Shown: piece by piece, positions 3,795-62,114 of the stretch
Position numbering within the stretch: position 1 is the first letter of the stretch
How the letters are laid out: each line of letters begins with the position of its first letter
NCBI RefSeq assembly: GCF_030684315.1
Contig: NC_081391.1
Coordinates: forward strand, 20,296,629 to 20,360,628
Source: Stegostoma tigrinum
Lineage: Eukaryota
Direction: 5' to 3'
Length of the DNA stretch: 64,000 nt
Position numbers and translations under genes: made by a program
Notes under the pieces: model-generated
The model's input: the letters and a program-made list of their open reading frames with translations, nothing else
The model's database searches: none
Told to the model about the DNA's origin: nothing

Positions 3795-6028
3795 TCAGCT
3801 CAGTGAGAGGCTGTCAAACAGGTACTCTCCCATGCCATTGTCAGGGTCTCCCAGTCTCTTCAGGTTGGTGATGTGATCTCCCAGCTTCTTGATCATCTTC
3901 ACTTGCTCATCCAGGTAGTGCCTCTCCAGGAAGTCACACAGCTGGAACAAGGAGCCAGAATGTAATGTTAGAGCAGACACATCAACAATCACACCATTGC
4001 GCTTTTGCAGTGATAAGTGTGAACAAGTGCTGGTATTTGAGAGCAGCTTGCTCTCCAGAAACAATGAACAGACTGGAATAGCTTTATTTGCAACTTTGCA
4101 AATGCAGAAATGGTGACAGAAACCTGAGTTTACCCACCAGGGATCAAACTGCCATTTCACAGAATTGGGTGGAAGTTCTAAACACTTACGCCTCTCACCA
4201 AGTCAGCAAAGCACATATCAGTGACTGACATCTATGTTCAGGATGGCTGCTGCTCTCAAACACTGGGACAATAGCAAGCCTATGCTTGTAGAACAGGAAT
4301 AGCAGATTCCCATGTCACCTTGAGCTCCCTCGAGACATGCATCCCATCAGGAACTCACATGAGGGTCCGTGTGGCCAGAGGCGAGTTTGTGCAGATCCAG
4401 CAGACTCTGGTTCACATCCTTCTCCATCCGCAGAGCTCTCTGCATTGCCTCCAGACCATTGCCCCACTCATCCTGCTCTGGCTTCTGGAGGGAGAAAACA
4501 CAGTCATTAATGAGGTTAGAAGGTCCAAGACTCGTACAAAGGCAAGAAAAAGACGACATATGGTAATCTGTGCCAAATCCAAACCAAGGATTAATAACAA
4601 TTCACAATTCACAGGTGGTCATGGAGACCATTATCAGACATTTGATCCATCATTAAGAACTGCTGACAGATCAGGGCTAAAGACTGAAACATTGGGATGA
4701 AGTTACCTGTATTCAGGCTAGTCTACAGTAATGTATCAGTCTAAACTGTCATTGGGGCAAGTTCAGTGCTAAAACCCTTTCATTCTGATTTGTTGATCTT
4801 TCAGAAAAGGAAAGAATTAGCAAAACCAACTCACATCAAGCAGAGACTTTCTATCAAGACACCTCACTCATCTCAACACAAGATGTACAGGGGAGTCTGG
4901 AACACCAAGGCCATTGCACAAGCAAGAAACAACAATTTGCATTTACTACAAGAGATAGACCCCAACCTTGATGTCCTGCAGGAGAACACGGCCACCACGT
5001 TTATTCTGGAATGCCATCAGTTTCTCAGCATGTTCCTGTTCCTCATGGGACTGCTCCTTGAAGAACTCTGCAAAGTGACGGAGGGCAACATCATCCCGGT
5101 CAAAGTAAGAGAACTGTAAGCAGAAGGGAACAGAAGGCAAGACTAAAATTTCATCACCAGCTAAAAGGTAAAATAGTAAGCTACTTAACAACTGACTGTA
5201 TCACAAGTCACTTAACAAATAAACAGGTGACAATTGATCACAGCATTGATGTTACACATCATCTCCAGACAAACATTCCTCTCCTCCTTCCCCCACCACC
5301 CTACTCAAGTCAGCAACACTAGCTCCTCCCCAAAAGGAACCCAATAATTAGAGACTATAATCTAATCTAATACTGTAATTGCTTCATGGAAACATCCAGT
5401 ATTAAACATGGACATGAACATGAGACTTTTCCTGACACCATACACTTCAGAACATAAAAGACAGAGGAGGATGCTAACCAATTGTGCAGTAAGGCTCAGC
5501 AGTTAGCACTACTGCCACACAGTGCCAGGGACCAGGGTCTGATTAAAACTGTGCATGTGAAGTTCACACATGCTCTCCAAAGATGTGGGTTTCCTTTCAC
5601 TGCCCATATATGGGCAGATGATGTTGACCAGCTATGCTAAATTGCCCATAGTGGCCAGGGCAGGGGGGTTAGCCATGGGAAGTGCAGGGTCACAAGGGGA
5701 CAGTAGGTGGGAGTGCTCTTGAGATGGACTCAATTGGACAAGTGACCTATATCTACATTATGCAGATGCTAATGATGATTATGATACCCAGCCAAAGAGA
5801 ACCACTCTCAGAAGGAGTAATTTAGATTTCAACACTCTGCTTATTAAAGAGGAGAACTTCTAGGTATTATCAGATTTACATTTAAATGCATTGTCTCATT
5901 TTACAATGCAGACAATCAAGCCTCACCATGGAGAGGTAAACATAAGAGGAATAGAGCTCCAGGTTGATCTGCTTGTTAACAGCATCCTCACAGTCCTTGT
6001 GATAGTTCTGACACACTTGGGAAGCCAT
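3795..6028 (-). CDS. Ferritin subunit (M/'heavy chain B'-like), copy A1, 173 aa, 4 exons
   Basis: Exons 6028-5927 ([34 protein letters not shown]), 5113-4967, 4484-4359 and 3941-3795 (TGA). All introns GT..AG and phase 0; exon sizes 102/147/126/147 match vertebrate ferritin structure. Ferroxidase residues E27, Y34, E61, E62, H65, E107 and Q141 (human H numbering) are present. Confidence 0.95.
5485..5770 (+). mobile_element. Degenerate HE1-like SINE in A1 intron 1
   Basis: ggctcagcagttagcactactgccacacagtgccagggaccagggt...atgctaaattgcccatagt. Confidence 0.65.
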
Positions 6029-6097
6029 CTTCACTACTCCTGCTCACTATCACCTCAACACCTCCAGAACTGAACTCCTTTCCTACGAACTCTTTTC

Positions 6098-6226
6098 TTT
6101 ATACTCCTGGGTCATCCTGCAATCAACCAGGGAATGACACCACCAATGATGACAGCCAATGAGGAATTGGCATGCATCCAGGCACCAATGAGGGGAATGG
6201 GGTGGAGTGAGATACTCAGAGCCAAT
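6098..6226 (-). promoter_or_regulatory. Ferritin A1 core promoter: TATA box plus four inverted CCAAT boxes
   Basis: TATAAA at 6103-6098; ccaat (plus strand) at 6143, 6156, 6185 and 6222. The block is conserved across paralogs whose flanks differ. Confidence 0.7.
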
Positions 6227-6869
6227 CAGTTTTGAAATGGCAGCAAATCTGTGATTGGTCCCAGGAGCTGAAGGAAGCCTGAAGGTGACTGGGGGCCAAA
6301 AGCAATGTGTTGACTTTTATCTTGCTTCTGGAATGGGGTCAGGCCACTCGGCCTAACAGCAATTATGAATGGATATCAGTGGTTGGCATCATTAGCAACA
6401 GCCATATTCTATGAAATGACTGAAACAAAACTCACTCCAGGGCCAAAATCAGAGTAATATACTCCACATATAGTATATTCTGTACTGCATACAATATTGA
6501 CATAGCCTGTACATTCTAGTCCTCTCCCTCCATCGAGATGATGACTAAACTGCTGTGAGCCTTTTCAGTTCAATTTTGCTGCAGACTGTGAGTTTTTAAG
6601 TCATTTCTACACATGGTTTCCTAACTCTGTGCTTTTCTTCAGTTCCTAGCTCTGTTGCTTTGAAAAAACTCTCATTTATCTTGGTGCAAGTTTGCTTTTC
6701 CTCACATGTTATTGATGTTGTTGATAATATTCTGCCTGTTTATGGTACTATCGTGCCAACTAATAGAATGCCATCAGGAAGCGTGAGAGAGATCTCTATT
6801 CTTTTGTCAATGTCACATGGAAATATATGGACGTCAGAGGACCCTGTGGGGAAGAGACAGAAACATCGA

Positions 6870-7110
6870 AACCTAGAACACAAGGGCAGGCGGAGGCCAT
6901 TCAGCCGTTTGAGCCTGCTCCACCATTCTATATGATCATGGCTGATCCCAGCAAACCCAACAGTGTGTTCCTGCTTTCCCTCCATATCGTTCGATCCCTT
7001 TAGCCCCAAGCACTAGATCCAACAATTTGAAATCAATGCTTTGGTCTCAACTGTGTACCGTGGTTGCAGATTCCACAGGCTCTCCCACTGTCTTGGTGAA
7101 GAAATGTAAT
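6870..7110 (-). mobile_element. CR1 3' tail fragment (copy at ~50670)
   Basis: ggccattcagcc..gagcctgctccaccattc..atgatcatggctgatc is the reverse complement of the CR1 tail at 13275-13340. Confidence 0.7.
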
Positions 7111-8772
7111 AGCCCATCCATGACACCAGGTTACACACAAATTGCCGATCGACAGTCAGATACCGACCTGTTTCGGAGAGTCCACAGTCAGTGTGTATCA
7201 GTTTGCTGTTTGGGATGATAAGTATTTTGACTAAGTAACACATGCATTTCTGCATTGACTGGAGATTAATGAAGCTTAGGGCTTGACGAGTAAAGTTGCC
7301 AGCAGCAAGGAATCAGATGTCGCCCTGGCCAAAGATGTTTCACAGTTAGTGTCTGCGAAATGATTAGAACTTTTGGCAATCCTGGTGGGTTGATGCCAAT
7401 CTTATATGTAAACACCTGACTTACACACTGTCCCCCACGCCCTTGCAGAGTGAGCCTGAAGCAGATTTGTCCCAGACCCTGAATGCGGTAACAAGGTCCT
7501 TCCTGATCTGTTACTACTTAACATTGCAGCTGACAGAGACAGATGGGGATCAAGAGCAGAGGAAACATTCAACTGTGTTCTGAAGCGTCACCGTACTTGA
7601 AATGCTTACTCGGTGTCTCTCTCTCTCTCATTGGATGCTAGCGGACTAGCTGAGTTTCTCCTATAATCTGTTTTGTCTCCAGGTTGTCAACATCCACAAA
7701 TCTTCAGTCCCACTTGCAACGCTTGGAAATGCCCGACAGATCCGAACAAAGACTGTAGTCACAAGCGAATGACATTATCATTAAATGGTGAATGCAGAAA
7801 GTCACCTATGAATTATACTGCAACTTTGCATTCATTTCAGCTACTTTGGAACTAGTCTAACGATGACCACAAAGCTGTTGTCGGAGAAAGCCCACCTTAT
7901 CGACTCATGTCCTTGACCGATAGAGTGAGGATATGGAGTTAGGCCAGTAAAAGGAAGCAGCTTGTATTCTACAAGAGAAACCCAGTACAAGAGAAACCTG
8001 GGTCCCCTCAGGCATGAATTGAGCAAAGCTCCGATTGAGATATTAAGCATTTCCCTTTGCTTTTATTACCAAAGGATCAGAGTGTGGAGGCTGATACAGC
8101 GGCAAGAGTATCGCACACTGTGCCCCTAAGAATAACGTAATCCAAACTCTCCTGAGAGTAAGCTGGAATTTTTTTAAAATGAAAAATAAAGGCACTCTTT
8201 CATCTCCCTCATTTAAACTCTTACTTGCTAAGGTTTCAGAAGGATGTGCGTAGCTCTGATTGTTGAGCAAGACATGCAAGCAGATTGTCCAGTTAGAGCC
8301 TTGTGGCTCAAGTTAAGGGATACCCTAGCCAGTTTATGGCAAAGGAGAGGTTTAACCTCCGGCACAGGTCATGCACTAGCATTCGTTAGGCTGGAATGCA
8401 GTGGCTACTGAATGAAAAGAAAGCTGAACCAATTAAAGGAAGAGACAGATGTGCAGTCAGGTTTTCAGGAGCTGAGAAAAAGGCAGATGCACTAGTGGTG
8501 TGGAAGGAAGACCTGCAGGATTGTATTAAATGGCAGACAGGAGTCAAGGAAGCTGATGGCCTACATTCAGACCCCTGCCTTGTACTTCACTGTAGCCACA
8601 TCACGGGGCGGGGGGGGGGGGGGGAAGGTAAATGTTTGATGATCAGTCTAGGAATTAGTTACACAGGAGAACGTAGTTGAGTGAATATTTTATTTCCACA
8701 TGCAGCAATAGAGAAACCGATACAAATAATTCTGCTTTCATGTACAATAGTGAAGCAATTCCAAACTGCCAC

Positions 8773-10900
<2,128 letters not shown>

Positions 10901-10967
10901 CTTCACTATTCCTGCTCACTATCACCTAGACAACTCTAGCACTAAGCCTTTGTACCACAATCTCTGG

Positions 10968-11095
10968 TATTTATACTCCTGGGACATTCTACGCTCAACG
11001 AGGGAATGACATCACCAATGATGACTGACATTCCCTGAAAGCCAATTCGGAATCTCCCATGAATTTCGCCCCGCCTCTGCCCTCCCACCAATTAG
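10968..11095 (-). promoter_or_regulatory. Ferritin B1 core promoter
   Basis: TATAAATA at 10975-10968, TGACATCA (CRE/ATF-like), three CCAAT and a GC-box-like ccccgcc. Confidence 0.65.
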
Positions 11096-11369
11096 AGAGA
11101 GGGTGTGGGTGTATGAGGCAGAGCTGATCAGAGGTGCAGATTGTTGTCAAGTCTGGATGGTTATTCTGTGATTGGATCAGCAGTCGGTCATTTGGAATCT
11201 CCAATCTGCTGGAACTCTCTATCGGGTCATGGTTAGTTTGAACAAAAAACTAGATTTGGATTTGGAAAGCTTTTCTTTTTAAACTAAGCTTGTTGTGACG
11301 AACTGCGAGAGGTGCTCAATGAAGGAGAATCAGTTTCTGCTGGGATATTGGAGAGAAAGGTCGGAGATT

Positions 11370-12110
11370 GGTGGTAGTTCCTAGAAATTTGTAACAGAAA
11401 CAAACAGGACAAAGACAGAAAAGATGTTTCTGATGACCAATGCGCCCAGAACCAAGGGTCACTGTCTAAGGATATAGAGTAGACTGTTTGGGATTGAGAT
11501 GAGGAGAAATATCTTCAGCCAGACAGTGGGGAGTCTGTTGTATTGTCTGGGACAGGAAACATTTGAGGCCAAAAGACTGAAGGTTTTGAAGAGTTAGATG
11601 TAGCTGATAGGGCTATGGGGATCAAAGGGTATGGAGAGAGAGTGTGAAGATGGTACTGAGTTAAGGGATTACCCATGATCATGTGGGATGCCAGAGCAGG
11701 CTGGAAAGGCTGTATCAAAATGGTTCATAATTTTGAACATTTCAATCAGGTCATCTTTTAATCTTCTCTGCTCCAAGGAGATAAGGCCAATTTTTAAAAT
11801 CTTTCCTGGTATCATTCCAGCAAATCTCCTTTGCACAGTGTCCAGGGCTTTAATGCCCTCCCTTACAAACAGTGCCCAGAATTGAACACAATACTCTAAT
11901 GTGGTCTGACCAATGGTGTGTAGTGGTGAAGCATTACTTCTTTGCTTTTATACTCTCGGGCTCTCCTTAAAAACACAAGGTTCCTATAAGCCTTCTTCAT
12001 GACTGTTTCATCTTGCCTGGCCACCTTCAGGGAATTGTAGTTTTAAATCCTGAGGGCTCTCTGTTCCTGTACTCACCTTGACGTTGTTCCATTGAACCTG
12101 TATTATCTCT
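11370..12110. mobile_element. Old CR1 fragments (plus-strand 3' end, then a minus-strand piece); copies at ~38850 and ~55160
   Basis: agaaccaagggtcac..gagatgaggagaaat..gggatcaaagggtatgg on plus; cagaattgaacacaatactctaatgtggtctgacc on minus encodes VRPH.EYCVQFW. Confidence 0.65.
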
Positions 12111-12285
12111 TCATGTCTCCATGTTTCTTCGACCAAAATGCATTTCTTGCATTTTTTTGTGTTGAAATTATAAAGTGATTGCCAACATCAAATCTTACCC
12201 AATAAAAATCAAATGATCCTAATTCTGAAGTCTTCAACTGACCCCCCCCGCCCCCCCGCCCCGCCTGTGTTTGTGTGTCCACTAT

Positions 12286-13369
12286 ATGATGCAAAGAGTA
12301 GTGATAAACGGGTCCCCTTCGGAATGGCAGGCAGTGACCAGTGGGGTACCACAAGGTTCGGTGCTGGGACCGCAGCTGTTTACGATATATATGAATGATA
12401 TAGACGAAGACATTAAAAGTAGTATTAGCAAATTTGCTGATGACACAAAGTTGGGTGGCAGTGTGTAATGTGAGGAGGATGTTATGAGAACACAGGGTGA
12501 CTTGAACAGACGAGGTGAGTGGACGGATGCATAGCAGACGCAGTTTAATGTGGATAAATGTGTGGTTATACACTTTGGTGGCAGGAACAGGAAGGCAGAT
12601 TACTATCTCAATGGAGTCAAGTTAGGTAAAGGGCAAGTACAACGAGATCTAGGTGTTCTTGTACATCAGTCAATGAAAGCAAGCATGCAGGTACAGCAGG
12701 CAGTGAAGAAAGCTAATGGCATGCTTGCCTTCATAACAAGAGGAATTGAGTATAGGAGCAAAGAGGTCTTTTTGCAGCTGTACAGGGCCCTGGTGAGACC
12801 GCACCTGGAGTATTGTGTGCAGTTTTGGTCTCCAAATTTGAGGAAGGATGTTCTTGCTATTGAGGGAGTGCAGCGTAGGTTCACAAGGGCAATTCCCAGA
12901 ATGGCGGGACTATCATATGTTAAAAGATTGGAGCGACTGGGCTTGTATACACTTGAGTTTAGAAGGATGAGAAGGAATCTGATTGAGGCGTATAAGATTA
13001 TTAAGGGATTGGACACTCTGGAGGCAGGAAGCATGTTTCTGCTGATGGGTGAGTCCAGAACTAGAGGACACAGTTTAAACATCAGGGGAAGGCCATTTAG
13101 AGCAGAGTTGAGGAAAAACGTCTTCACCCAGAGAGTGGTGGATATATGGAATGCTCTTCCCCAGAAGGCAGTGGAGGCCAAGTCTCTGGATACTTACTAG
13201 AAAGAGATAGATAGAACTCTTAAAGGTAGTGGGATCAAGGGTTATGGGGATAAGGCTGGAACAGGATACTGATTGTGGATGATCAGCCATGATCATAATG
13301 AATGGTGGTGCTGGCTCGAAGGGCCGAATGGCCTACTCCAGCACCTATTGTCTATTGTCTACTGTCTGT
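12286..13369 (+). mobile_element. CR1-clade LINE, 5'-truncated, relatively young
   Basis: [41 protein letters not shown] and FTQRVV.IWNALP motifs; 3' (ctattgt)n tail; internal stops. Confidence 0.95.
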
Positions 13370-14318
13370 CCCTTCTGTGAAGAGGCTGTTTCTGACATTA
13401 TCCTGGACAGTTTAGCTTTAATTTGAAGATTCTATTTCCAATCCATACGCTCAGCCCTAGATGACCCATTGAGACGAAACAATTCCTCTCAATCTACCCT
13501 GTCAAATCCACTAATGCTCTTAAAACTTCCAAATACCGCCGGCTCTTAACCTTCCATACTGAGGGACTCGGGCAAGCTGCCATCATCATTTAACCAGCTC
13601 TTTATCTCTGAGTTGATTCTGGAAATTCTCTGCTGCACCATCTTTAGGCCCAACCTGCCAAAAATGATATCCCAGAGATGGTTGAACCAGAACTTGACAA
13701 TTTCATAAAAAACCTCCACCCAGAGGTGTGCAAATCCCTTAGAGATCAGGACTGACATTGAATTAATTTCTTTGTTCAGTGTTTTTATATCTCGTCTCTA
13801 GTTTCAATACATTTCTGTCCACTTGTCTCAGTTTCATTTTGATCATTAGTTTTGACAACCCAGCAGAAGATGTCCCCATTTCTAAAACACTCTGACTCAT
13901 CTTTCTTGGTCAGGAGTGGATAACTTCACACTTCCCCTTATTGAACTGTATCAGCCATTCTTCCCCACTCCATGGAAGTTTGAAACATTCTACTGTCATG
14001 ATAAAGTGCCACTTGATGTAATGCCATCAGCAAATATTTGAATTGTGGCTGTCCATTTCTTCATCTGTAACATTTATAATCCAAGGAAAAGCTAAGGCCC
14101 CAGTTTCTCTCCTTGGGGAAAGTAATGACATCTTGCTTTCTCTTTTATTACCTCATGGGGTGAACGTTTTGTTGGCTGGCCCAGCATTTATTGCATTTCC
14201 CTAATTATTATTGTCTTCTTGAATTGCTGTTGTCCATTTGGTGTAGGGAGATCCATAATGCCATTTTGGACAGAATTCCAGGATTCAGATGGTATGACTG
14301 TAGATTGAGTTTTGCCTC

Positions 14319-14525
14319 ATGAGCTTCATTGAGTATTTTGAAGAAGTGATGAAGAGCAATGATGAGGGCAGAGTGGTGGGCGTGATCTGCATGGACTGCA
14401 ACGAAGCGTTTTACAATGTTGCTCATAGTAAGCTGTTTAGCAAAGTGAGATCACATGGAATCCATGGAGAATTATCCATTTGGATACAGAAATGGCTCAA
14501 AGGTGGAGGGCAAAGGGTTCCGGTA
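14319..14525 (+). mobile_element. Old CR1 RT fragment (copies at 40733 and 58112)
   Basis: IEYFEEVMKSNDEGRVVGVICMDCNEAFYNVAHSKL..HGIHGELSIWIQKWL, a degenerate form of DVVYMDFSKAFDKVPH. Confidence 0.75.
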
Positions 14526-14527
14526 GA

Positions 14528-15260
14528 GGCAACAAAGTGCGGAGCTGGAGGAACATAGCAGGCCAGGCAGCATCAGAGGAGCAGGAAAGCTGTTGTTTCG
14601 GGTTGAGACCCTTCTACCGAAATTGGGAGGGGGGGGGAAGCTCAGAAATAAAGAGGAGGGGTGGGACTGGGAAGGTAGATGGGATGGTGATGGGTGAGTG
14701 CAGATAGGGGGTAGTCAGGAATGGCCAGTGAGGTGGGGGGGATGCAGATAGGTGGGAGAGAAGATGGACAGGTCAAAGAGGTGGGGATGAGAGGGAGAGA
14801 GGGGATTGGTCATGGGGTGAGGAGATTTTGAAGTTAATAAGGTCCACATTTAGTGTCGTGGGCTGTAAGCTCCCAAGGCAGAATATGAGGTGCTTCTCTT
14901 CCAGTTTGAGGATGACATTGGTGTGATACTGGAGGATGCCCAAAATGGACAGGTCATCCAGGAATGGGAGCGGGAGGGAAGTTAAAACATTTTGCGATTG
15001 GAAAACGTTGTTTTTTGTTGCACATTGAACACAGATGCTCTAGAAAAACTGTCTCCCTCATGTAGCGGAGGCCACATTGGGTGCAGCCGATACAACAGAC
15101 CAACTTGAAACATGTGCAGGTTATCCCTGTCTGATGTCGAAGGTTTGTTTGTTTTTCTTTTGTTTTGAATGGAGACACGTGGGAGGCGGTTAGGTGTAGC
15201 TGTTCCTACAGTTGTAGGGAACCGGGCTGGGGTTAATGGCGAGTACAGAGTGGATGAGGG
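14528..15260 (-). mobile_element. Older Penelope-like fragment, second family
   Basis: TCTCFKLVCCIGCTQCGLRYMRET..FLEHLCS..FPIAKCFN (degenerate GIY-YIG) and a related terminal repeat. Boundaries approximate. Confidence 0.7.
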
Positions 15261-15604
15261 AGTGGCAGGGATACCAGCGGAGAGGTACTCGGGTGTCCAT
15301 AGTAAGAGGGGCTATGCCTGCTTCTGTCAGTTATGTGGAACAGTCCCTCTTCTGCTGCTACACTGGCATTATCCCGTACCTCTTCCTTACTCATAGATTG
15401 ACAGTAAATAGCCAGCTACATTGCTGTGTGGGTGGTGAGTCAGCTGTCAGCCAACTGCTTTCCTTCCCTGAAAGGGTTAGAAAAACGTAGGACTGCTGAG
15501 AGTTGGCCTTTCAGCAAATTAAGTGGTGTCTCTTTTCTCTTCCACTCTTTCCCCGTCCTTTCGATCTCCTCTCTTCCCCCCTCCCTCCACCCCCTGCCCG
15601 AAGC

Positions 15605-15670
15605 CTGGATGCAATGCAGGGAACTCTGCAGAGAGAGAAGAAGGTGAACCAGAGTCTATTGGATCTCCAT
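15605..15670 (+). pseudogene. Inverted ferritin exon-3 fragment
   Basis: Plus strand reads [22 protein letters not shown], against [22 protein letters not shown] in exon 3. Preceded by a polypyrimidine tract. Confidence 0.8.
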
Positions 15671-16562
15671 GTCTGCAAATGTAGCTTTAATTGCACCAGC
15701 TGTCCCCAGCAGTTGATTGCTGGAGCCAGAACAGGAACTATGCCACATTTGTCCCACAAGCTACAAGGTGGGCATTGAGGATAGGAGACACTGTTACAGG
15801 AGAGAGCAGATTCCTCACTCAGTCTCCTACAGTGGAGACTTGTTAGAAAATCCAATTCCTTAGCTTGGGAAACTAGAACAGTGGTGTCTTGCTTGTTCAA
15901 AGAAGCATGCCAAAAAAATGCAATGCACGTGCCAGATGCTATTGCTGTTCCTTTTTTATTAACAAAGTATTTTTTTAATGCTTGGATTCTGCTAACCAAG
16001 TTAAATGAAGGTTACTAGCAAAACTGAGGTCTGGCAGCACCTGTGGATAGACTTCAGTTGAGGAGTCACCAGACTCAACCATTAATTGGTGTATCAACAC
16101 GTGCAGAGTGCCACCTACCCCCCTGACTCTAGCCGTTTGTATTGTGTTTGATCCCAGCTTTTAGGAAAGTTGGAGCATTGCTAGGGACAGGGCACCAGTT
16201 AAGTGGCTAACAGTTAGAATGGAGCAATTTTGGTGAAGCTATTGACTGGAGACTGCTCTTACAGAACTGTCACCGTGAGCACTGCTTAAAAGCCAAAAGC
16301 TTAACAGTTTGATTTCCACACCAATTACTCATTTAAAAAAATCTTTTGACTTTGGATTCAGAAACTGAACAAAAATTGCCAGGGCAAGCATTGATTCAAT
16401 GCAGAGAGCAAAAAGCCAAAGCGATTTAATAATCAGGTAATAAGCAGCCAAATAAGTGTAGTCAGATACATGGGCAATGTTTTCATTTTGTGCAGAGTGT
16501 GCAAAAAAAAAGTCATTCACTAGAACACCAGTGTACAACAAATGGAGTTGTTGAATCCTCAT

Positions 16563-18023
16563 TCAGCTCAGGCTGAGCCTGTCAAACAGATACTCTCCTT
16601 TGCCCTTCTGAGGGGCTCCCAGTCTCTTCAGGTTGGTGATGTTATCTCCCAGCTTCTTGATCATCTTCACTTGCTCATCCAAGTAGTGCCTCTCCAGGAA
16701 GTCACAGCTGGAAGACAAGACAAGTTAGTGGAATCCATTGAAGACATTTGGAAGTGACCCTCAATTCAGATTTAACAAATCAATACCATGTTGAGGGAGA
16801 GGGGCACTCTGGTGATGCGTTTGGACTGTTGTAGATTTAACAGTCTGCAGGAGGCAGTTATGAGACAATTGTATTCCCCCTCCCCACAAGAGTACACAAA
16901 CAGATCACTTTCAGGTTGGAAACATTCATCTTTCCTGGAATTTGATCGTCATCCTGGTAGTTTGTTGTTCGAAAGGCCATCAGCCCTACATGCTGAATTT
17001 AGCAGTGAAAGGCAAGGAAGCTTATTGGAGAGAAAGTGAGGAACTCACATGAGGGTCTGTGTGGCCAGAGGAGAGATTGTGCAGATCCAGCAAACTCTGG
17101 TTCACATCCTTCTCCTTCTGCAGAGCTCCCTGCCTTGCCTCCAGATCATTGACCATGGTCAGTCTTCTGAAGCGGCAGCGTGGGGGTGGATGGTAAGAGA
17201 CAAGACACATCACTTAAAATGCAAGAAACCAGTGAAAAAAGCAACAAGACCTCCATCTCATTAGGAGAGTGTACAACAGCTAAGAGATTATATCCAAAGC
17301 ATTAAAATGCTATAATATTCAGGGCTTAAAAAGCCTTCTTCAGGACAAAATGACATTTCATTAAACCCAATCTTGATGTCCTACAAGAGGAGCATGCACC
17401 CACATTCTGGAATGCCATCAGTTTCTCAGCTGTTCCCATTCCTTCGAGGAACAGTGCCATGAGAACTCAAAGTGACACAGGACAACATCTTCCCAGTCAA
17501 AAGTGAAAGGATTGTAAACAGGGAAACCCATTGGGGTTTGTTGTTAAAGATTCTTCTCTACTTGAAATGCTTCTTCAGTCAGGCCTGCAGGTTCTGGAAG
17601 GGAAAGCCTCCCTTGTAAATCACAACAAAAACAACACCAGAATAGATTGAGGTGTAGTTTCTTGCCTTGTGAAGCAGGAGGGAAGGGAGGGATCATCTTC
17701 CTACAAGTTGGGTCTTGAATATTTCATACTTGACACAAAATATTAAGTATTAAAATAAAACCTCAACATTCCAAAAGGCCATATGGGTAGGGAAAATGGC
17801 TCAGCTTCAGCAAGGAAACCTTCCAACACAGAACAGGATTCTCAGCTCTGGAGTGAACTAGCAAAGTTGATTAGTGAAGTATTGACAGCAAATAGAACTC
17901 AGGATTGTGATAGTGTTCCTCCCTCTGGGATGGAGGTCCAGGGTCGCATACGCTCTAGAGGTCAGACATATTATCTCTCAACAGATTAACACTATTCAAT
18001 AGAATAAGTCCAATTACATTGTA

Positions 18024-18063
<40 letters not shown>

Positions 18064-18347
18064 ACAGACATCCCAGGTCATACATCAGGATCAAACCATT
18101 AAAAGATTATTCACTTCTCAAGGTCAGGGAAAGGCCACAGAAGATTCTAAAATATGAATTGAATGATGCAGAGAGACCCTACACCCACAATACATTGAGG
18201 CCACAGCTTGAAATCTGAAATAAATCCAGAGAACACCACTGTCACCATGGAGAGGTAAACATGGGGGAAAGAAAGCACCAGGGTGATCTGCTTGTTAACA
18301 ACATCCTCACAGGCCTTGTGATGGTTCTGCCACACTTGGGACGGCAT
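16563..18347 (-). pseudogene. Ferritin pseudogene, copy C1
   Basis: Exon 1 at 18347-18246 is diverged (ITLVLSFPHVYLSM, E27 lost). Exon 2 (~17511-17372) has indels and its donor GT is mutated to AT. Exon 3 at 17166-17049 is 118 nt (frameshift). Exon 4 at 16707-16563 is 145 nt (2-nt deletion right after the acceptor). Confidence 0.9.
18030..18060 (+). repeat. (CA)n microsatellite
   Basis: About 15 CA units; absent at the paralogous site (~61825). Confidence 0.9.
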
Positions 18348-19139
18348 CTTCACTATTGCTGCTCACAATCACTTGGACAACTCTAGAACTGAGTCTCCCT
18401 CCCACAAGCTCTTGTATTTATACTCCAGAGACCATCCTGCACCAACCAGGGAATGACATCACTAACAATGATTGACAATCTCTGACAGCCAATCAGGAAT
18501 CTGCAAGAACCCAGTCACCAATGAACAGAGGAGGAGGAGAGTGGGGCAATGTGCTGAGACCCAGAGTCAATCAGAGATTTGGGTAACAGTCAGGTTGAGA
18601 TTATTATTCTGTGATAACGAGAGCACTTAGCCTCTCAAACCTGTCCCCTAATTCAACTGGATCGGTGCGAGTCTGAGTCTTCATTTAATACCTTTGCCTG
18701 GGTTCTGCATCGCATCATATTGCGAACTAGCACAGCTCAACAAATCAGTTTCGAAATGTCCAAGGGGCTTGCAGAATTTTGGGAGTGATACTGTAATGTT
18801 TGAGATTAAGCATCATCACTGATTACCATAGCTTTGATCTGAAGATTATTCCCCCTTTTCCAGGATTACTTCGCCACAGGAAACAGTACATTGTCTAACG
18901 GCACGATTAGATCCATTAATAATCCAAAGTACCTGGATAATATTCATTCTCGAGTCTTCCACACTCTTGCAAGGACAAGGCTAGTTGATGTAAACTGTAT
19001 TCATAACGTAACCAGCTTGGGGCTGAGAAAATGCTGGTGAATCTGTGCTAAGGTCCCTCAAATAACCCTGTCAGAGCTCAGCACAGCGCTCCAAATGTGC
19101 TCTGATGCCACTTCTATGCTGTTGTATTACAACCCATGC

Positions 19140-26042
<6,903 letters not shown>

Positions 26043-26109
26043 CTTCACTATTCCTGCTCACTTTCACCAGGGCAACTCCAGAACTCAGCCTCTCAGCCAC
26101 AAGCTCTTG

Positions 26110-26256
26110 TATTTAACCTCCTGGAACATCCTGCACTCAACCAGGGAATGACATCACCAATGATGATTGACAATCCCTGATAGCCAATCAGGCATCTCCA
26201 TGAATGCAGGAGCCAATGAAGGGCATGGGGTGGAATGAGATCCCCAGAGCCAATCA
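26110..26256 (-). promoter_or_regulatory. Ferritin D core promoter
   Basis: TTAAATA variant at the TATA position, TGACATCA, and four CCAAT at ~26157, 26184, 26213 and 26250. Confidence 0.6.
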
Positions 26257-26799
26257 GAGCTTTGGAACTGAGGCATATTTGGAACATTCAGTGATTGTCG
26301 CTGATGAACAGGAGGTGGATGTTCTGCCCTGTCCTGCCACCTAATTGTATCAAGCCTGGTCTGTTGCTTCCTTACACTCTTCCTACATTGGTCCTGTGTT
26401 CCTGTCACACCATGAACGAACGAACATCCAACTGTCTCACATCTGAGCAGTTTATTTGTTCCCAATATTTCTGGGAAAAAGATTGCAGAGTTCTGAATCC
26501 TTTTCCTGAGGAAATGATTCCTGGCACCTGCCCTGGATGGCCACAGCATAATGATGGCATTGTACTCCTTGGTCACGCTAAAATAATTTCTCTCCCTCTG
26601 GCTCCTCAAACCCGATTGTTATTTTCCAAACTCCAATTGTAGTCAGCCCTAAATCTTCATTACCCAAGTGAATGCAAGTACACTCTTTGCAAATTGTCCT
26701 CACAATTTAAGCCTGTTAGTCCTGGGATCGTTCTGGTGAATGCGCACTGTAGCGCGACGATGGTGTTGTTGCTGAGCTAGTCACAGAGAGGCTCGGATT

Positions 26800-32235: not shown

Positions 32236-32300
32236 CTTCACACCTACTTACAAAAAGCAAACTCAAACAACAGCCTAACCACACCTCCCACCATCTCTAG

Positions 32301-32450
32301 TATTTATGTAAATTGAAATCTGCATTCCAACAGGAAGTTATCACCAATAGTGCTTGGCTATTAGGGATTTCCAATCAGCAGGCTCCCATGAATACAGGCA
32401 TTAATTAGGGAGAGGTGCTGGGGGGAGCTATGTACAAAGCAGAGCCAATC
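32301..32450 (-). promoter_or_regulatory. Ferritin E core promoter (diverged)
   Basis: CATAAATA at 32308-32301, with CCAAT boxes retained at homologous spacing. Confidence 0.55.
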
Positions 32451-32649
32451 GGAGCAGTGGGAAACCAGCAGGTTTCAACAGTTTGGGCCATGGGAACAGG
32501 AGGAGACCATTCAGCCCCTCAAACCTATTTCAGTATATAATTGGATCTTGGCTGGTCTGCTTTTCAGTTCCATATGAACAACCTTCTTCCATAAAGCGGA
32601 ATCATAGAATCCCATCACAAATTCACCAAAGATCCTCAGATTGCACCTT

Positions 32650-36255: not shown

Positions 36256-38453
<2,198 letters not shown>

Positions 38454-39735
38454 CACCTGGGACATCCTATGTTCAACGAGGGAATGACATCACCAATGAT
38501 GACTGACATTCCCTGAAAGCCAATTAGGAATCTCCCATGAATTTAGCCCCGCCTCTGCCCTCCCACCAATTAGAGAGAGGGTGTGGGTGGATTAGGCAGA
38601 GCTGATCAGAGGTGCAGATTGTTGTCATGTGGATGGTTATTCTGTGATTGGATCAGCAGTTGGTCATTTAGAATCTCAAATCTGCCGGAACTCTCTGTCG
38701 GGTCATGGTTAGTTTGAAAAAAAAAACTAGATTTGGATTTGGAAAGCTTTTCTTTTTAAACTGAGCTTGTTGTGACCAACTGCGAGAGGTGCTCAATGAA
38801 GGAGAATCAGTGTCTGAGCATGTTCTGCTGGGATATTGGAGAGAAAGGTAGGAGATTGATGGTATTTCCTAGAAATTTGTAACAGAAACAAACAGGACAA
38901 AGACAGGAAGGATGTTTCTGTTGACCAATGCGCCCAGAACCAAGGGTCACTGTCTAAGGATATAGAGTAGACTGTTTGGGATTGAGATGAGGAGAAATGT
39001 CTTCAGTCAGACCTTGGGGAGTCTGTTGTATTCTCTGGGACAAAAAACAGTTGAGGCTAACATACTGAAGGTTTTGAAGAGTTAGATGTAGCTGATAGGG
39101 CTATGGGGATCAAAGGGTATGGAGAGAGAGTGTGAAGATGGTACGGAGCTAAGGGATTACCCATCATCATATGGAATGTCAGAGCAGGCTGGAAGGGCTG
39201 TATCAAAATGGTTCATAATTTTGAACATTTCAATCAGGTCATCTTTTAATCGTCTCTGCTCCAAGGAGATAAGGCCAATTTTTAAAATCTTTCCTGGTAT
39301 CATTCCAGCAAATCTCCTTTGCACCGTGGCCAGGGCTTTAATGCCCTCCCTTAGAAACAGTGCCCAGAATTGAACACAATACTCTAATGTGGTCTGACCA
39401 ATGGTGTGCAGTGGTGTAGCATTACTTCTTTGCTTTTATACTCTCGGGCTCTCCTTAAAAACACAAGATTCCTATAAGCCTTCTTCATGACTGTTTCATC
39501 TTGCCTGGCCACCTTCAGGGAATTGTAGTTTTAAATCCTGAGGGCTCCCTGCTCCTGTACTCACCTTGACGTTGTTCCATTGAACCTGTATTATCTCTTC
39601 ATGTCTCCATGTTTCTTCGACCAAAATGCATTTCTTGCATTTTTTTGTGTTGAAATTAAAAAGTGATTGCCAACATCAAATCTTACCCAATAAAAATCAA
39701 GAGATGCTAATTTTGAAGTCTTCAACTGACACCGG

Positions 39736-39769: not shown

Positions 39770-39771
<2 letters not shown>

Positions 39772-41949: not shown

Positions 41950-42015
41950 AGCCGAGATGCTATGAAGGGAACTCTGCAGATAAAGAAGGTGAACCAGAGT
42001 CTCCCGGATCCCCTT
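41950..42015 (+). pseudogene. Inverted ferritin exon-3 fragment (more decayed copy)
   Basis: gatgctatgaagggaactctgcagataaagaaggtgaaccagagtctc, in the same flanking context as 15605-15670. Confidence 0.7.
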
Positions 42016-42953: not shown

Positions 42954-43098
42954 TCAGCTCAGGCTGAGCCTGTCAAACAGATACTCTCCTTTGCCCTTCT
43001 GAGGGGCTCCCAGTCTCTTCAGGTTGGTGATGTGATCTCCCAGCTTCTTGATCATCTTCACTTGCTCATCCAAGTAGTGCCTCTCCAGGAAGTCACAG
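42954..43098 (-). pseudogene. Ferritin remnant (C-type exon 4 only)
   Basis: Near-identical to C1 exon 4, including the 2-nt deletion. Intron 3 runs to ~43412 and is then replaced by a Penelope-like end. Confidence 0.88.
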
Positions 43099-47583: not shown

Positions 47584-49827
47584 TCAGCTCAGTGAGAGCC
47601 TGTCAAACAGGTACTCTCCCATGCCATTGTCAGGGGCTCCCAGTCTCTTCAGGTTGGTGATGTGATCTCCCAGCTTCTTGATCATCTTCACTTGCTCATC
47701 CAAGTAGTGCCTCTCCAGGAAGTCACACAGCTGGAACAAGGAGCCAGAATGTAATGTTAGAGCAGACACATCAACAATCACACCATTGCGCTTTTGCAGT
47801 GATATAAGTGTGAACAAGTGCTGGTATTTGAGCACAGCTTGCTCTCCAGAAACAATGAACAGACTGGAATAGCTTTATTTGCAACTTTGCAAATGCAGAA
47901 ATGGTGACAGAAACCTGAGTTTACCCACCAGGGATCAAACTGCCATTTCACAGAATTGGGTGGAAGTTCTAAACACTTACGCCTCTCACCAAGTCAGCAA
48001 AGCACATATCAGTGACTGACATCTATGGTCAGGATGGCTGCTGCTCTCAAACACTGGGACAATAGCAAGCCTATGCTTGTAGAACAGGAATAGCAGATTC
48101 CCATGTCACCTTGAGCTCCCTCGAGACATTCATCCCATCAGGAACTCACATGAGGGTCCGTGTGGCCAGAGGCTAGTTTGTGCAGATCCAGCAGACTCTG
48201 GTTCACATCCTTCTCCATCCGCAGAGCTCTCTGCATTGCCTCCAGACCATTGCCCCACTCATCCTGCTCTGGCTTCTGGAGGGAGAAGACAGTCATTAGT
48301 GAGGTTAGAAGGTCCAAGATTCGTACAAAGGCAAGAAAATGAAGACATGTGGTAATCTGTGCCAAATCCAAACCAAGGATTAAAAATAATTCACAATTCA
48401 CAGAAGATCATGGAGACCATGATCAGACATTTGATCCATCATTAAGAACTGCTGACCGATCAGGGCTAAAGACTGAAACATTGGGATGAAGTTACCTGTA
48501 TTCAGGCTAGTCTACAGTAATGTATCAGTCTAAACTGTCATTGGGGCACGTTCAGTGCTGAAACCCTTTCATTCTGAGCATTCTGATTTGTTGATCTTTC
48601 AGAAAAGGAAAGAATTAGCAAAACCAACTCATATCAAGCAGAGACTTTCTATCAAGACACCTCACTCATCTCAACACAAGATGTACAGGGGAGTCTAGAA
48701 CAGCAAGGCCATTGCACAAGCAAGAAACAACACAATTTGCATTTACTACAAGAGATAGACCCCAACCTTGATGTCCTGCAGGAGAACACAGCCACCACGT
48801 TTATTCTGGAATGCCATCAGTTTCTCAGCATGTTCCTGTTCCTCATGGGACTGCTCCTTGAAAAACTCTGCAAAGTGACAGAGGGCAACATCATCCCGGT
48901 CAAAGTAAGAGAACTGTAAAGCAGAAGGGAACAGAAGGCAAGACTAAAATTTCATCACCAGCTAAAAGAGTAAAATAGTAAGCTATTTAACAACTGACTG
49001 TATCACAAGTCACTTAAAAAATAAACAGGTGACAATTGATCACAGCATTGATGTTACACATCATCTCCAGACAAACATTCCTCTCCTCCTTCCCCCACCA
49101 CCCTACTCAAGTCAGCAACACTAGCTCCTCCCCAAAAGGAACCCAATAATTAGAGACTATAATCTAATCTAATACTGTAATTGCTTCATGGAAACATCCA
49201 GTATTAAACATGGACATGAACATGAGACTTTTCCTGACACCATACACTTCAGAACATAAAAGACAGAGGAGGATGCTAACCAATTGTGCAGTAAGGCTCA
49301 GCAGTTAGCACTACTGCCACACAGTGCCAGGGACCAGGGTTTGATTAAAACTGTGCATGTGAAGTTCACACATTCTCTCCAAAGATGTGGGTTTCCTTTC
49401 ACTGCCCATATATGGGCAGATGATGTTGACCAGCTATGCTAAATTGCCCATAGTGGCCAGGGCAGGTGGGTTAGCCATGGGAAGTGCAGGGTCACAAGGG
49501 GACAGTAGGTGGGAGTGCTCTTGAGATGGACTCAATTGGACAAGTGACCTATATCTACATTATGCAGATGCTAATGATTATGATACCCAGCCAAATAGAA
49601 CCACTCTCAGAAGGAGTAATTTAGATTTCAACACTCTGCTTATTAAAGAGGAGAACTTCTAGGTATTATCAGAATTACATTTAAATGCATTGTCTAATTT
49701 TACAATGCAGACAATCAAGCCTCACCATGGAGAGGTAAACATAAGAGGAATAGAGCTCCAGGTTGATCTGCTTGTTAACAGCATCCTCACAGTCCTTGTG
49801 ATAGTTCTGACACACTTGGGAAGCCAT
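47584..49827 (-). CDS. Ferritin subunit, copy A2, 173 aa, 4 exons
   Basis: Exons 49827-49726, 48913-48767, 48275-48150 and 47730-47584. Duplicate of A1 with an open frame; two Arg>Cys changes in exon 2. Confidence 0.95.
49285..49570 (+). mobile_element. Degenerate HE1-like SINE in A2 intron 1
   Basis: Duplicate of 5485-5770. Confidence 0.65.
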
Positions 49828-52557: not shown

Positions 52558-54691
<2,134 letters not shown>

Positions 54692-58319: not shown

Positions 58320-59050
58320 AGGCAACAAAGTGTGGAGCTGGAGGAACACAGCAGGCCAGGCAGCATCAGAGGAGCAGGAAAGCTGATGTTTCGGGTTGAG
58401 ACCCTTCAGAAATCGCGAGGGGGTGGGGGAGGGGAAGCTCTGAAATAAAGAGGAAGGGTGGGACTGGGAAGGTAGGTGGGATGGTGATGGGTAAGTACAG
58501 GTAGGGAGTGGTCAGTGAGGTGGGAGAGAAGATGAACATGAACAGGTCAAGGAGGTGGGGATTGGTCATGGGATGAGGAGATGTTGAAGTTAATAAGGCT
58601 CACATTTAGTGTCTTGGGCTGTAAGCTCCCAAGGCAGAATGAGGTGCTACTCCTCCAGTTTGAGGATGACATTGGCGTGATACTGGAGGATACCCAAGAT
58701 GGACAGGTCAGCCATGGAGTGGGAGGCGGGGGGGATGGTAAAACGTTTTGTGATTGGAAAATGTTGTTTTTCGTTGCACATTGAGCGCAGATGCTCTCGA
58801 AAAACTGTTTCCCTCATCTAGCGGCGGCCACATCGGGTGCAGCCGATACAATAGACCAACTTCAAACATGTGCAGGTTATCCCCGTCTGATGTTGAAGGT
58901 TTGTTTGTTTTTTTATTTTGAATGGAGACACGGCGGGGGTGGGGGTTGCGGGTGGTGGTGCTAAGGTGTAGCTTTTCCGACAGTTGAAGGGAACAGGGCT
59001 GGGGTTAATGGGGAGTTCAGAGTGGATGAGGGAGTGGCAAGGATACAGGT
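58320..59050 (-). mobile_element. Older Penelope-like fragment (duplicate)
   Basis: TCTCLKLVYCIGCTRCG; homologous to 14528-15260. Confidence 0.65.
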
Positions 59051-59399
59051 GTAGCGGTACTGGGGTCCCCATAGTGAGAGGGGCCATGGGTGCCCTTACA
59101 AGCCTAAGCTATGCCTGCTTCTGTCAGATATGTGGAACAGTCCCTCTTGTGCTGCCAGACTGGCACTATCCCCTACCTCTTCCTTACTCATAGATTGACA
59201 GTAAATAGCCAGCGACATTGCTGTGTGGGTGGTGAGTCAGCTGTCGGCCAACTGCAAACCTTCCCTGAAAGGGTTAGAAAAGTTTAGAACTGCTGAGTGT
59301 TGGCCTTTCAGCAAATTAAGCGAAATGTCTCTTCTCTCTTCCACTCTTTCCCCCTCCTTTCTATCTCCTCTCTCCCTGCCTCCACCCCCTGCCCAAAGC

Positions 59400-59465
59400 C
59401 TGGATGCAATGCAGGGAACTCTGCAGAGAGAGAAGAAGGTGAACCAGAGTCTACAGGATCTCCAT
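59400..59465 (+). pseudogene. Inverted ferritin exon-3 fragment
   Basis: Reads LDAMQGTLQREKKVNQSLQDLH; duplicate of 15605-15670. Confidence 0.8.
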
Positions 59466-60356
59466 GTCTGCAAATGTAGCTTTAATTGCACCTGCTGTCC
59501 TCAGCAGTTGATTGCTGGAGCAAGAACAGGAACTATGCCACATTTGTCCCACAAGCTACAAGGTGGGCATTGAGGATAGGAGACACTGTTACAGGAGAGA
59601 GCAGATTCCTCACTCAGTCTCCTACAGTGGAGACTTGTTAGAAAATCCAATTCCTTAGCTTGGGAAACTAGAACAGTGGTGTATTGCTTGTTCAAAGAAG
59701 CATGGAAAAACATGTAATGCACATGCCAGATGCTATTGCTGTTCCTTTTTTATTAAAAAAGTATTTTTTTAATGCTTGGATTCTGCTAACCAAGTTAAGT
59801 GAAGGTTACTAGCAAAACTGAGGTCCGGCAGCACCTGTGGGTAGACTTCAGTTGAGGAGTCATCAGACTCAAACATTAACCGGTGGATGAACAAATGCAG
59901 AGTTGCACCTGCCCCACTGACTCTAGCAGTTTGTATTGTGTTTGATCCCAGCTTTTAGGAAAGTTGGAGCATTGCTAGGGACAGGGCACCAGTTAAGTGA
60001 CTAACAGTTAGAATGGAGCAATTTTGGCGAAGCTATTGACTGGAGCCTGCTCTAACAGAACTATCACCGTGAGCACTGCTTAAAAGCCAAAAGCTTAACA
60101 GTTTGATTTCCACAACAATTACTCATTTAAAAAATTCTGATGACTCAGGACTCAGAAACTGAACAAAAATTGCCAGAGCAAGCATTGATTCAACGCAGAG
60201 AGCAAAAAGCCAAAGCGATTTAATAATCAGGTAAAAAGCAGCCAAATAAGTGTAGTCAGATACATGGGCAATGTTTTCATTTTGTGCAGAGTGTGCAAAA
60301 AAAAAGTCATGCACTCGAACACCAGTGTACAACAAATGGAGTTGTTGAATCCCCAT

Positions 60357-62114
60357 TCAGCTCAGGGTGAGCCTGTCAAACAGATACTCTCCTTTGCCCT
60401 TCTGAGGGGCTCCCAGTCTCTTCAGGTTGGTGATGTGATCTCCCAGCTTCTTGATCATCTTCACTTGCTCATCCAAGTAGTGCCTCTCCAGGAAGTCATA
60501 GCTGGAAGAACAGACAAGTTAGTTGAGTCCATTGAAGACATTTGGAAGTGACCCTCAATTCAGATTTAACAAATCACCGCCATGTTGAGGGAGAGAGGCA
60601 CTCTGGTGATGTGTTTGGACTGTTGTAGATTTGACAGTCTGCAGGAGGCAGTTATGAGACATTTGTATTCCCCCTCCCCCCAGGAGTAGACAAACAGATC
60701 ACTTTCAGGTTGGAAACATTCATCTTTCCTGTAATTTGAAAATCATCCTGGTAGTTTGTTGCTCTAAAGGCCATCAGCCCTACATGCTGAATTTAGCAGT
60801 GAAAGGCCAGGAAGCTTCTTGGAGAGAAAGTGAGGAACTCACATGAGGGTCTGTGTGGCCAGAGGAGAGATTGTGCAGATCCAGCAGACTCTGGTTCACA
60901 TCCTTCTCCTTCTGCAGATCTCCCTGCATTGCCTCCAGGCCATTGCCATGGTCAGTCTTCTGAGGCGGCAGCGTGGGGGTGGATAGTAACAGACGAGACA
61001 CATCACTTAAAATGCAAGAAACCAGTGAAAAAAGCAACAAGACCTCCATCTCATTAGGAGAGTGTACAACAGCTAAGAGATTATATCCAAAGCATTAAAA
61101 TGCTATAATATTCAGAGCTTAAAACAGCCTTCTTCAGGACAAAATGACATTTCATTAAACCCAATCTTCATGTCCTACAAGAGGAGCATGCACCCACATT
61201 CTGGAATGGCATCAGTTTCTCAGCTGTTCCCATTCCTTCAAGGAACAGTGCCATGAGAACTCAAAGTGACACAGGACAACATCTTCCCAGTCAAAAGTGA
61301 AAGGATTGTAAACAGGGAAACCCATTGGGGTTTGTTGTTAAAGATCCTTCTCTACTTGAAATGCTTCTTCAGTCAGGCCTGCAGGTTCTGGAAGGGAAAG
61401 CCTCCCTTGTAAATCACAACAAAAACAACACCATAATAGATTGAGGTGTAGTTTCTTGCCTTGTGAAGCAGGAGGGAAGGGAGGGATCATCTTCCTACAA
61501 GTTGGGTCTTGAATATTTCATACTTGACACCAAATATTAAGCATTAAAATGAAGCCTCATCATTCCAAAAGGCCATATGGGTAGGGAAAATGGCTCAGCT
61601 TCAGCAAGGAAACCTTCCAACACAGAACAGGATTCTCAGCTCTGGAGTGAACTCGCAGAGTTTATTAGTAAAGTATTGACAGCAGATAGAACTCAGGATT
61701 GTGATAGTGTTCGTCCCTCTGGGATGGAGGTCCAGGGTCGCATACGCTCTAGAGGTCAGACATATTATCTCCAGACTGATTAACACTATTCAATAGAATA
61801 ATTCCAATTACATTGTACAGAAAAACACCCACAGACTTCCAAGGTCATTCATCAAGATCAAACCATTAAAAGATTATTCACTTCTCAAGGTCAGGGATAG
61901 GCCACAGAAGATTCTAAAATATGAATTGAATGATGCAGAGAGATCCTACACCCACAATACATTGAGGCCACAGCTTTAAATCTGAAATAAATCCAGAGAA
62001 CACCATTATCACCATGGAGAGATAAACATAGGAAAAAGAAAGCACCAGGTTGATCTGCTTGTTAACAACACCCACACAGGCCTTGTGTTGGATCTGCCAC
62101 ACTTGGGAGGGCAT
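60357..62114 (-). pseudogene. Ferritin pseudogene, copy C2
   Basis: Exon 1 at 62114-62013, degenerate exon 2 (~61305-61166) with AT donor, exon 3 at 60959-60843 (117 nt) and exon 4 at 60501-60357 (145 nt, frameshift). Confidence 0.9.

Follow-up and report, generated by a model that had tools for sequence, protein, structure and literature searches.

A tandem ferritin gene array in the zebra shark, assigned by protein trees to a cartilaginous-fish lineage apart from FTH1

A 64,000-nucleotide stretch of contig NC_081391.1 of the zebra shark, Stegostoma tigrinum (hereafter, the window), was found to hold a tandem array of ten ferritin loci, six of them intact. Protein trees place these genes in a cartilaginous-fish lineage apart from FTH1, so that by this evidence they are not FTH1 orthologues, and their products are predicted to be cytosolic, ferroxidase-competent subunits. 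The promoters combined a TATA box with clustered inverted CCAAT boxes, and no iron-responsive element (IRE) was found in the 1 kb upstream of the start codons. Ferritin expansion and a lead to the ovary are already in print for sharks, and the window is a member of a known shark cluster. On balance, we favour a role of the array in supplying oocytes with ferritin.

Results

Layout of the array

All ten loci had minus-strand orientation and together spanned 3795 (stop codon of gene A1) to 62114 (ATG of the last psiC), in the head-to-tail order A-B-psiC-D-E-psiF-psiC'-A-B-psiC (Table 1). They were recovered by exon-wise BLASTN and TBLASTN, and the E-values of the exon matches (1e-17 to 1e-74) were not those of chance. 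Six loci (A1, B1, D, E, A2 and B2) were intact, each with four exons of 102, 147, 126 and 147 nt, GT-AG borders at all three introns and a 522-nt open reading frame (ORF) for 173 aa; the other four (psiC, psiC2, psiF and psiC') were broken. A preliminary description of the window had proposed at least ten tandem ferritin loci in 64 kb, six intact 173-aa genes with four pseudogenes or remnants, and this same order; it was confirmed exactly, coordinates included. The Pfam Ferritin domain (PF00210) matched all four exons of D, two of them above the curated cut-off. Window DNA was AT-rich. Every ferritin exon of the window scored best against one and the same class, and no L-type gene was found there, a query of the Lys59 class described below scoring under the zebra shark protein P0014 at every full exon.

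Phylogenetic placement

With exon 2 of D as query, 1014 matches were obtained, the closest single-domain ones being from zebra shark, whale shark and bamboo sharks (90-96%). RefSeq proteins of Stegostoma, Rhincodon and Chiloscyllium named 'ferritin heavy chain B-like' or 'higher subunit-like' were 87-97% identical to the window proteins. As in the window, these carpet-shark paralogues are many per species and apparently on one contig; they differ in that their names are automatic and that the exact window proteins were absent among the cluster representatives. P0014 paired with A (support 100/94), and P0044 grouped loosely with B. Single clusters at 90% identity were large, with 127 records under a bamboo shark representative, 138 under a sawshark one and 180 under a sevengill shark one. 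These counts pool different species, isoforms and duplicate records and should not be read as copy number.

In a tree of 58 proteins, the window genes fell in a clade of 23 shark and ray rows (95/92), which included the white shark (Carcharodon) rows and within which carpet sharks grouped together (93/87). One chimaera protein, P0252 of Callorhinchus milii, which has Ala138, was sister to this elasmobranch clade (24 rows, 100/94), so the array lineage would predate the shark-chimaera split. All 19 carpet shark rows formed one group in a quick tree of 67 rows (SH-aLRT 97), and 10 sawshark rows formed another (84). Chondrichthyan FTH1 was a clade of its own (100/99), as was a low-copy chondrichthyan non-H class, and the window proteins were 69-76% identical to the other chondrichthyan ferritin classes. 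Among groups named after the first tree, the approximately unbiased (AU) test rejected a union of the array with chondrichthyan FTH1 (p-AU 0.038) and did not reject its union with the low-copy non-H class (p-AU 0.31). The backbone was poorly supported (86/47 and 89/68 in two trees). The non-H class and array members occurred on equal-sized contigs in five species; this apparent co-location suggests an origin at an M/L-type locus, from which the array probably derives.

The first tree, the quick one, used 61 of 120 matches, and the later two used 45 of 231 and 54 of 273 database proteins. Unnamed records, fused or partial models and most near-duplicates were excluded, and neither a mammalian L chain nor a Greenland shark protein was included. 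Long 'ferritin' models in shark annotation (P0001, P0003-P0008; P0004 repeats exons 2-3) are probably neighbouring array genes fused by gene prediction. One vertebrate-type H ferritin labelled as bacterial (P0145), on a 903-bp contig, was excluded as probable database contamination.

Proteins and selection

All six proteins kept Glu24, Tyr31, Glu58, Glu59, His62, Glu104 and Gln138 of the ferroxidase centre and the nucleation residues Glu54 and Glu61. The ligand positions other than Tyr31 and the nucleation positions were taken from PMC4117605. L-chain identity was ruled out by the presence of all ligands in each of the six proteins. P0014 matched solved ferritins at 1e-82, bullfrog M ferritin being the best match. 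No N-terminal signal or targeting peptide was found, the 173 aa aligning with M ferritin from residue 1 and at most 4-5 hydrophobic residues occurring in any 9 near the N-terminus, which speaks against a secreted yolk ferritin or a mitochondrial ferritin. A scan against NCBIfam gave sub-threshold bacterial ferritin matches alone.

The array genes share with amphibian and teleost M ferritins the ferroxidase centre together with Glu54 and Glu61, and the four-exon layout described in PMC4117605. They differ from them in a shortened tail (173 aa), in Met141 where Asp, Ala or Ser stands, and in the IRE, which salmon M genes carry and which was not found in the window genes. Glu54 and Glu61 with a ferroxidase centre also occurred in chimaera and skate H chains and are thus weakly diagnostic of an M chain. 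Met141, near Gln138, was present in all 23 elasmobranch array rows vs none of 35 others; we take position 141 to shape the transit of iron to the ferroxidase centre. Gene E carried Lys131 at what is presumably the three-fold entry channel, where the other five proteins had Glu.

Mean dN/dS (ratio of nonsynonymous to synonymous divergence) among A1, B1, D and E was 0.30 (0.16-0.54, 200 bootstraps), with higher values for the pairs B1-E (0.73) and B1-B2 (0.81, on 4 differences).

Promoters and iron-responsive element

No IRE-type hairpin pattern was found in the 1 kb upstream of any of eight start codons. Rfam gave no match at gathering score over the whole window, and at E<=10 four chance matches over 25900-33500 (D-E), none of them an IRE. 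All five salmon H and M genes possess an IRE (PMC4117605). The TATA box stood at -73 to -75 from the ATG in eight of eight promoters, which implies a leader of about 45 nt.

In each intact gene, the roughly 300 nt before the ATG held three or four inverted CCAAT boxes; the psiC copies had two and one. Four promoter segments held 14 boxes vs 0.81 expected, a number reached in none of 20,000 random draws, in an interval chosen after the boxes were seen and in promoters that are paralogous. More telling than this excess, minus-strand stretches of 131 nt with at least three inverted CCAAT boxes occurred at seven places in the window, all of them ferritin promoters, that of psiF included. We take multi-CCAAT promoters to be of oocyte type, a link not stated in the review that was checked. 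Cytoplasmic polyadenylation elements and poly(A) signals were inconsistent between copies and were not used as evidence.

Repeat units

Bases 1-20233 of the window recurred at 43794-64000 with 96.1% identity. Over an alignment of 20,114 bases, the two copies differed by 597 substitutions (2.97%) and were set apart by 48 indel events. A shared 3' flank marked unit starts at 49, 19139, 43842 and 62907. Together, the long duplicate and this flank show that the array consists of units of 19-25 kb and continues past either edge of the window. That both edges lie inside the repeat had been claimed beforehand and was borne out by matches elsewhere in the window: 62907-64000 was 94.3% identical to 49-1119, and bases 1-48 matched 43794-43841.

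Divergence within the long duplicate was 0.5-2.4% per kb over A-B and 3-8% per kb over psiC. Where 13000-20233 aligns with 56800-64000, it jumped from about 1.5% to 3-8%, and the three psiC flanks were about equidistant from one another in 13400-15600; the duplicate is thus a mosaic. A strict 43.8-kb higher-order repeat was rejected: adjacency fits it, but the window covers only 1.46 periods, the copies diverge unevenly, and the flank at the right edge shows no specific likeness to D (sites unique to A1 14, D 27, edge 22). A, B, D and E are at least four distinct intact loci, since their introns are mostly unrelated and their coding sequences differ at 24-30 of 522 bases.

Exons, introns and recombination

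Mean identity among A1, B1, D and E was 95.6, 91.4, 96.8 and 96.8% for exons 1 to 4, and 3-9 of 57-62 four-fold sites differed (5-16%). Ungapped identity dropped towards background about 10-20 nt past the intron boundaries. Of 18 intron pairs, 16 scored no better than 60 shuffles, one was marginal and one (intron 2, A-B) was clearly homologous. Two loci were hybrid: psiF combined a B promoter with introns 2-3 resembling those of A and with an exon 4 that differed from B and E at two bases but from A at six, and D joined an A-type 3' flank to non-A introns.

Old introns around young exons, hybrid genes and the lineage-level grouping of an ancient cluster indicate crossover and conversion confined to exons, in addition to birth-and-death. 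The birth-and-death amplification of one subunit type proposed earlier was supported in that four of ten loci are dead, one class occurs throughout and mean dN/dS is low; as a full account it falls short, because near-identical exons between unalignable introns need exon-confined exchange as well. An origin as processed pseudogenes was ruled out by the introns in all copies. Conversion templated by cDNA was not favoured, the 3' untranslated regions of A, B and E not being homogenised while the promoters were alignable.

A second shark class, and rays

A second multi-record class of sharks carried Lys59. It comprised seven rows (P0257, P0271, P0266, P0269, P0265, P0267 and P0256; 100/99), with Glu138 too in carpet sharks, and clusters of 76, 45, 43 and 19 records. 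Its members were on contigs equal in size to those of the array class and were absent from the window. Lys59 is, we presume, a change typical of L chains, and the class looks like an L-type partner of the array class. Ferroxidase ligands were altered in four of the five ray and skate members of the array clade (P0110, P0253, P0247 and P0264), and record counts were low in rays and skates, unlike in sharks.

Other features of the window

Coordinates are collected in Table 1. In psiF (38150-38620, minus strand), promoter and TATA box were kept, and the leader has a possible splice donor after the deletion; the locus may thus yet give rise to a non-coding or truncated transcript. The three inverted exon-3 fragments, which were not part of the preliminary description, accompanied the psiC flank, downstream of each psiC and opposite to all genes; they might give rise to antisense sequence or be left over from an old inversion.

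A weak match to a GIY-YIG domain at 20202-20594 (minus strand; E 0.002, below cut-off), with related sequence at 754-1141, 43432-43844 and 44547-44934, suggests a decayed Penelope-like element in the shared flank; one related fragment sat at the psiC' break. LINE-like (long interspersed element) fragments lay on the plus strand at 12332-13200, 28385-29477, 56123-57063 and 58112-58399. Within the last, 58112-58396 matched RVT_1 (E 4e-6, below cut-off), and the others are presumably of CR1/L2 type. A short interspersed repeat of about 110 bp (25465-25573) had 12 further matches; intron 1 of D contained three copies, lying in both orientations, and one partial copy stood at the left edge. Two (AC)15 microsatellites, at 18030-18060 and 39739-39769, are possible markers for allelism of units; Tandem Repeats Finder returned two dinucleotide runs alone. 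A tRNA scan of the window found none.

Table 1. Coordinates of ferritin loci, promoters and repeat structures in the window
Feature	Position	Strand	Remarks
Ferritin gene A1, intact, 173 aa	3795..6028; exons 6028-5927, 5113-4967, 4484-4359, 3941-3795	-	96.5% identity to zebra shark P0014
A1 promoter	6029..6260	-	TATA -75; inverted CCAAT -119, -132, -161, -198; IRE not found
Ferritin gene B1, intact, 173 aa	8773..10900; exons 10900-10799, 9900-9754, 9291-9166, 8919-8773	-	AATAAA 79 nt past stop
B1 promoter	10901..11210	-	TATA -75; inverted CCAAT -119, -146, -192, -305
Inverted exon-3 fragments	15605..15669, 41956-42010, 59400-59464	+	Exon-wise BLAST
Pseudogene psiC	16563..18347	-	Exon 2 frameshifted, exon 3 start damaged, exon 4 open; promoter with 2 inverted CCAAT boxes
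Ferritin gene D, intact	22930..26042; exons 26042-25941, 24589-24443, 24271-24146, 23076-22930	-	Hybrid: A-type 3' flank (92%), introns unrelated to A
D promoter	26043..26270	-	TATA-like -74; inverted CCAAT -119, -146, -175, -212
Ferritin gene E, intact, most divergent copy	30082..32235; exons 32235-32134, 31424-31278, 30495-30370, 30228-30082	-	Lys131 (Glu in other five), Pro117
E promoter	32236..32460	-	TATA-like -73; inverted CCAAT -113, -140, -214
Pseudogene psiF	36256..38620	-	ATG and exon 1 deleted (~170 bp); exons 2-4 open, GT-AG; B-type promoter kept
psiC' remnant	42954..43097	-	Exon 4 alone; upstream break within intron 3 near 43410
Ferritin gene A2, intact	47584..49827	-	7 nt, 4 aa differences from A1
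Ferritin gene B2, intact	52558..54691	-	4 nt, 3 aa differences from B1
Pseudogene psiC2	60357..62114	-	Exon-2 frameshifts common with psiC; exon-3 start damaged
Long duplicate	copy 1: 1..20233; copy 2: 43794-64000	.	Offset 43,793
Start of fourth unit	62907..64000	.	3' flank common to A1, D, A2; implies further gene past edge

Discussion

Large ferritin clusters are known from sharks. For the Greenland shark, Sahm et al. (10.1101/2024.09.09.611499) report 155 copies of FTL and 179 of FTH1. Some 80% lie in three clusters syntenic with the white shark and more than 85% are full length, and the largest cluster is said there to be expressed specifically in ovary, one legend mentioning eight tissues. 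The window resembles these clusters in being a large tandem array of mostly full-length ferritin genes, and white shark proteins share a clade with its own. The two accounts differ in that the published copies are labelled FTH1 or FTL by similarity, whereas the window class is not FTH1-orthologous by the trees, and in that the main-text section of the preprint holds no tree, promoter, IRE or conversion analysis, of which its supplements may hold more. The '90% of amino acids' that the preprint gives as shared with the human genes fits better as coverage than as identity, because even against other chondrichthyan ferritin classes the window proteins reach 69-76% identity.

The preliminary description had set the expansion against the few ferritin genes usual in vertebrates; for sharks it is not unexpected, being in print and visible in the public annotation of many species. 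For the lineage, IRE loss, promoter and conversion of the shark array, no published treatment was found, subscription journals and preprint supplements lying outside the scope of the search. A second Greenland shark preprint had no occurrence of ferr, fth, ftl or iron, and the main text of the Squalomix tandem-gene preprint had none of ferritin or fth. Carpet sharks, catsharks, sawshark and sevengill shark have the expansion too, which, if the features described here are confirmed, would speak against tying the many ferritin copies of the Greenland shark to its longevity. Tandem ferritin amplification is also known from other vertebrates, i.e., the hadal snailfish fthl27 (14 tandem copies, broadly expressed and lowering reactive oxygen species (ROS) in cells; PMC10746142) and mouse Fthl17 (seven clustered genes expressed in early embryos; PMC2887969). 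Both are far smaller and lineage-restricted, fthl27 is broadly expressed, and both lay outside our trees.

By analogy with the Greenland shark, we lean towards a role in the oocyte. Through gene dosage and freedom from repression by iron-regulatory proteins (IRP), it would stock up on ferritin in advance, and this ferritin would hold the yolk iron, keep lipid oxidation in check and provide iron for embryonic blood formation. Units of 19-25 kb would duplicate through unequal crossing-over; with introns diverged, exons would be the main shared homology, and crossovers and conversions would land there. Such exchange would keep the coding sequence uniform and make hybrid genes such as D and psiF, while some copies die. 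Many copies with strong TATA/multi-CCAAT promoters and without IRE could then provide bulk ovary ferritin whatever the iron level, the growing oocyte being the most likely cell to make it. The shells would oxidise and store iron arriving with yolk, guard yolk lipid against iron-driven oxidation during months of development and supply the embryo, and the array subunits may co-assemble with the amplified, L-like Lys59 class outside the window. Of the tissues listed in the preliminary description, ovary or oocyte is backed by the published RNA-seq for the corresponding Greenland shark cluster (10.1101/2024.09.09.611499), and nothing here directly supports erythrocyte, liver or immunity. A parallel is offered by tandem yolk-receptor paralogues specific to chondrichthyans, whose expression is ovary-restricted (PMC10015161).

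Several points weigh against this reading. The ovary expression is borrowed from another shark order, where it is one sentence in a preprint. Orthology of the window copies to the Greenland shark cluster is based on a protein tree, where white shark rows fall in the clade, rather than on synteny, the window holding no flanking genes, and the groups for the AU test were defined with the first tree at hand. Four of five batoid members have altered ferroxidase ligands, yet rays also produce yolky eggs. The transcription start was placed from the TATA box, so an upstream IRE exon may exist, and the IRE screens had no shark FTH1 DNA as positive control. The excess of CCAAT boxes was counted in an interval fixed with the boxes in view, the review that was checked did not state their link to oocytes, and such promoters are common. 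Low synonymous divergence could partly reflect codon bias, the G+C content at third codon positions being 0.65-0.69 in array genes. In sharks the lymphomyeloid epigonal organ surrounds the ovary, and RNA taken from whole ovary can therefore stem from immune tissue; ferritin is also among the liver-specific orthologues of the spiny dogfish (PMC5568229).

Alternatively, the array might work in cells of the immune or blood-forming system (epigonal organ, leukocytes), where it would withhold iron or protect from the oxidative burst, and the ovary signal would come from the surrounding epigonal tissue. Ferritin is an acute-phase protein in fish (PMC4117605) and IRE-free control suits induction driven by transcription, but the sole expression statement is ovary-specific among the tissues sequenced; we consider this improbable. 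It is likewise improbable that the copies are largely neutral and arise because the region is prone to recombination, with few working copies and conversion keeping the rest intact-looking. Dead loci (four of ten), hybrid genes and frequent transposable element fragments would be expected from it, conversion can mimic purifying selection, exon 4 of the dead psiC is still open, and dN/dS is higher for gene E and recent pairs (B1-E and B1-B2, the latter on four differences). Against it, four promoter classes have kept their CCAAT clusters although the sequence around them has diverged, and the cluster is decayed in psiC; large member counts recur over shark orders (the clusters of 127, 138 and 180 records), and types A and B each have a counterpart of their own in the zebra shark.

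A general antioxidant effect of gene dosage across many tissues has been proposed for fthl27, whose tandem copies are broadly expressed and lower ROS in cells (PMC10746142). For the shark array it would suit the intact ferroxidase centres; it appears unlikely, as the shark cluster is reported to be tissue-specific and was found in shallow- and deep-water, short- and long-lived sharks alike. Inflation by assembly error is very unlikely: A1/A2 and B1/B2 could be two haplotypes placed in tandem, their part of the duplicate differing by only 0.5-2.4% per kb, but the introns of A, B, D and E are mostly unrelated, the psiC part differs by 3-8% per kb, many paralogues occur in independent assemblies of many sharks, and A2, B2 and psiC2 are the most that could be affected.

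Beyond the oocyte role favoured here, we put forward more tentatively, and as rather doubtful in its full extent, a maternal ferritin system of sharks. Such a system would descend from a lineage older than the shark-chimaera split, be free of IRE/IRP control, be amplified to tens or hundreds of copies in two complementary classes, ferroxidase-active Met141 and L-like Lys59 subunits, that remake the H/L heteropolymer independently, use an oocyte-type TATA/multi-CCAAT promoter, and have been kept uniform for more than 250 million years by exon-confined conversion. If true, oocyte-type multigene families would have a counterpart among ferritins. The shark cluster has so far received one preprint paragraph and misleading automatic names, and the window offers features towards an explanation: no IRE found in its screens, a distinctive promoter, a lineage-specific residue near the ferroxidase site, homogenisation limited to exons, and a partner class with a lost ligand. 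Confirmed, these features would provide a route for safe iron storage in very large, long-incubating vertebrate eggs.

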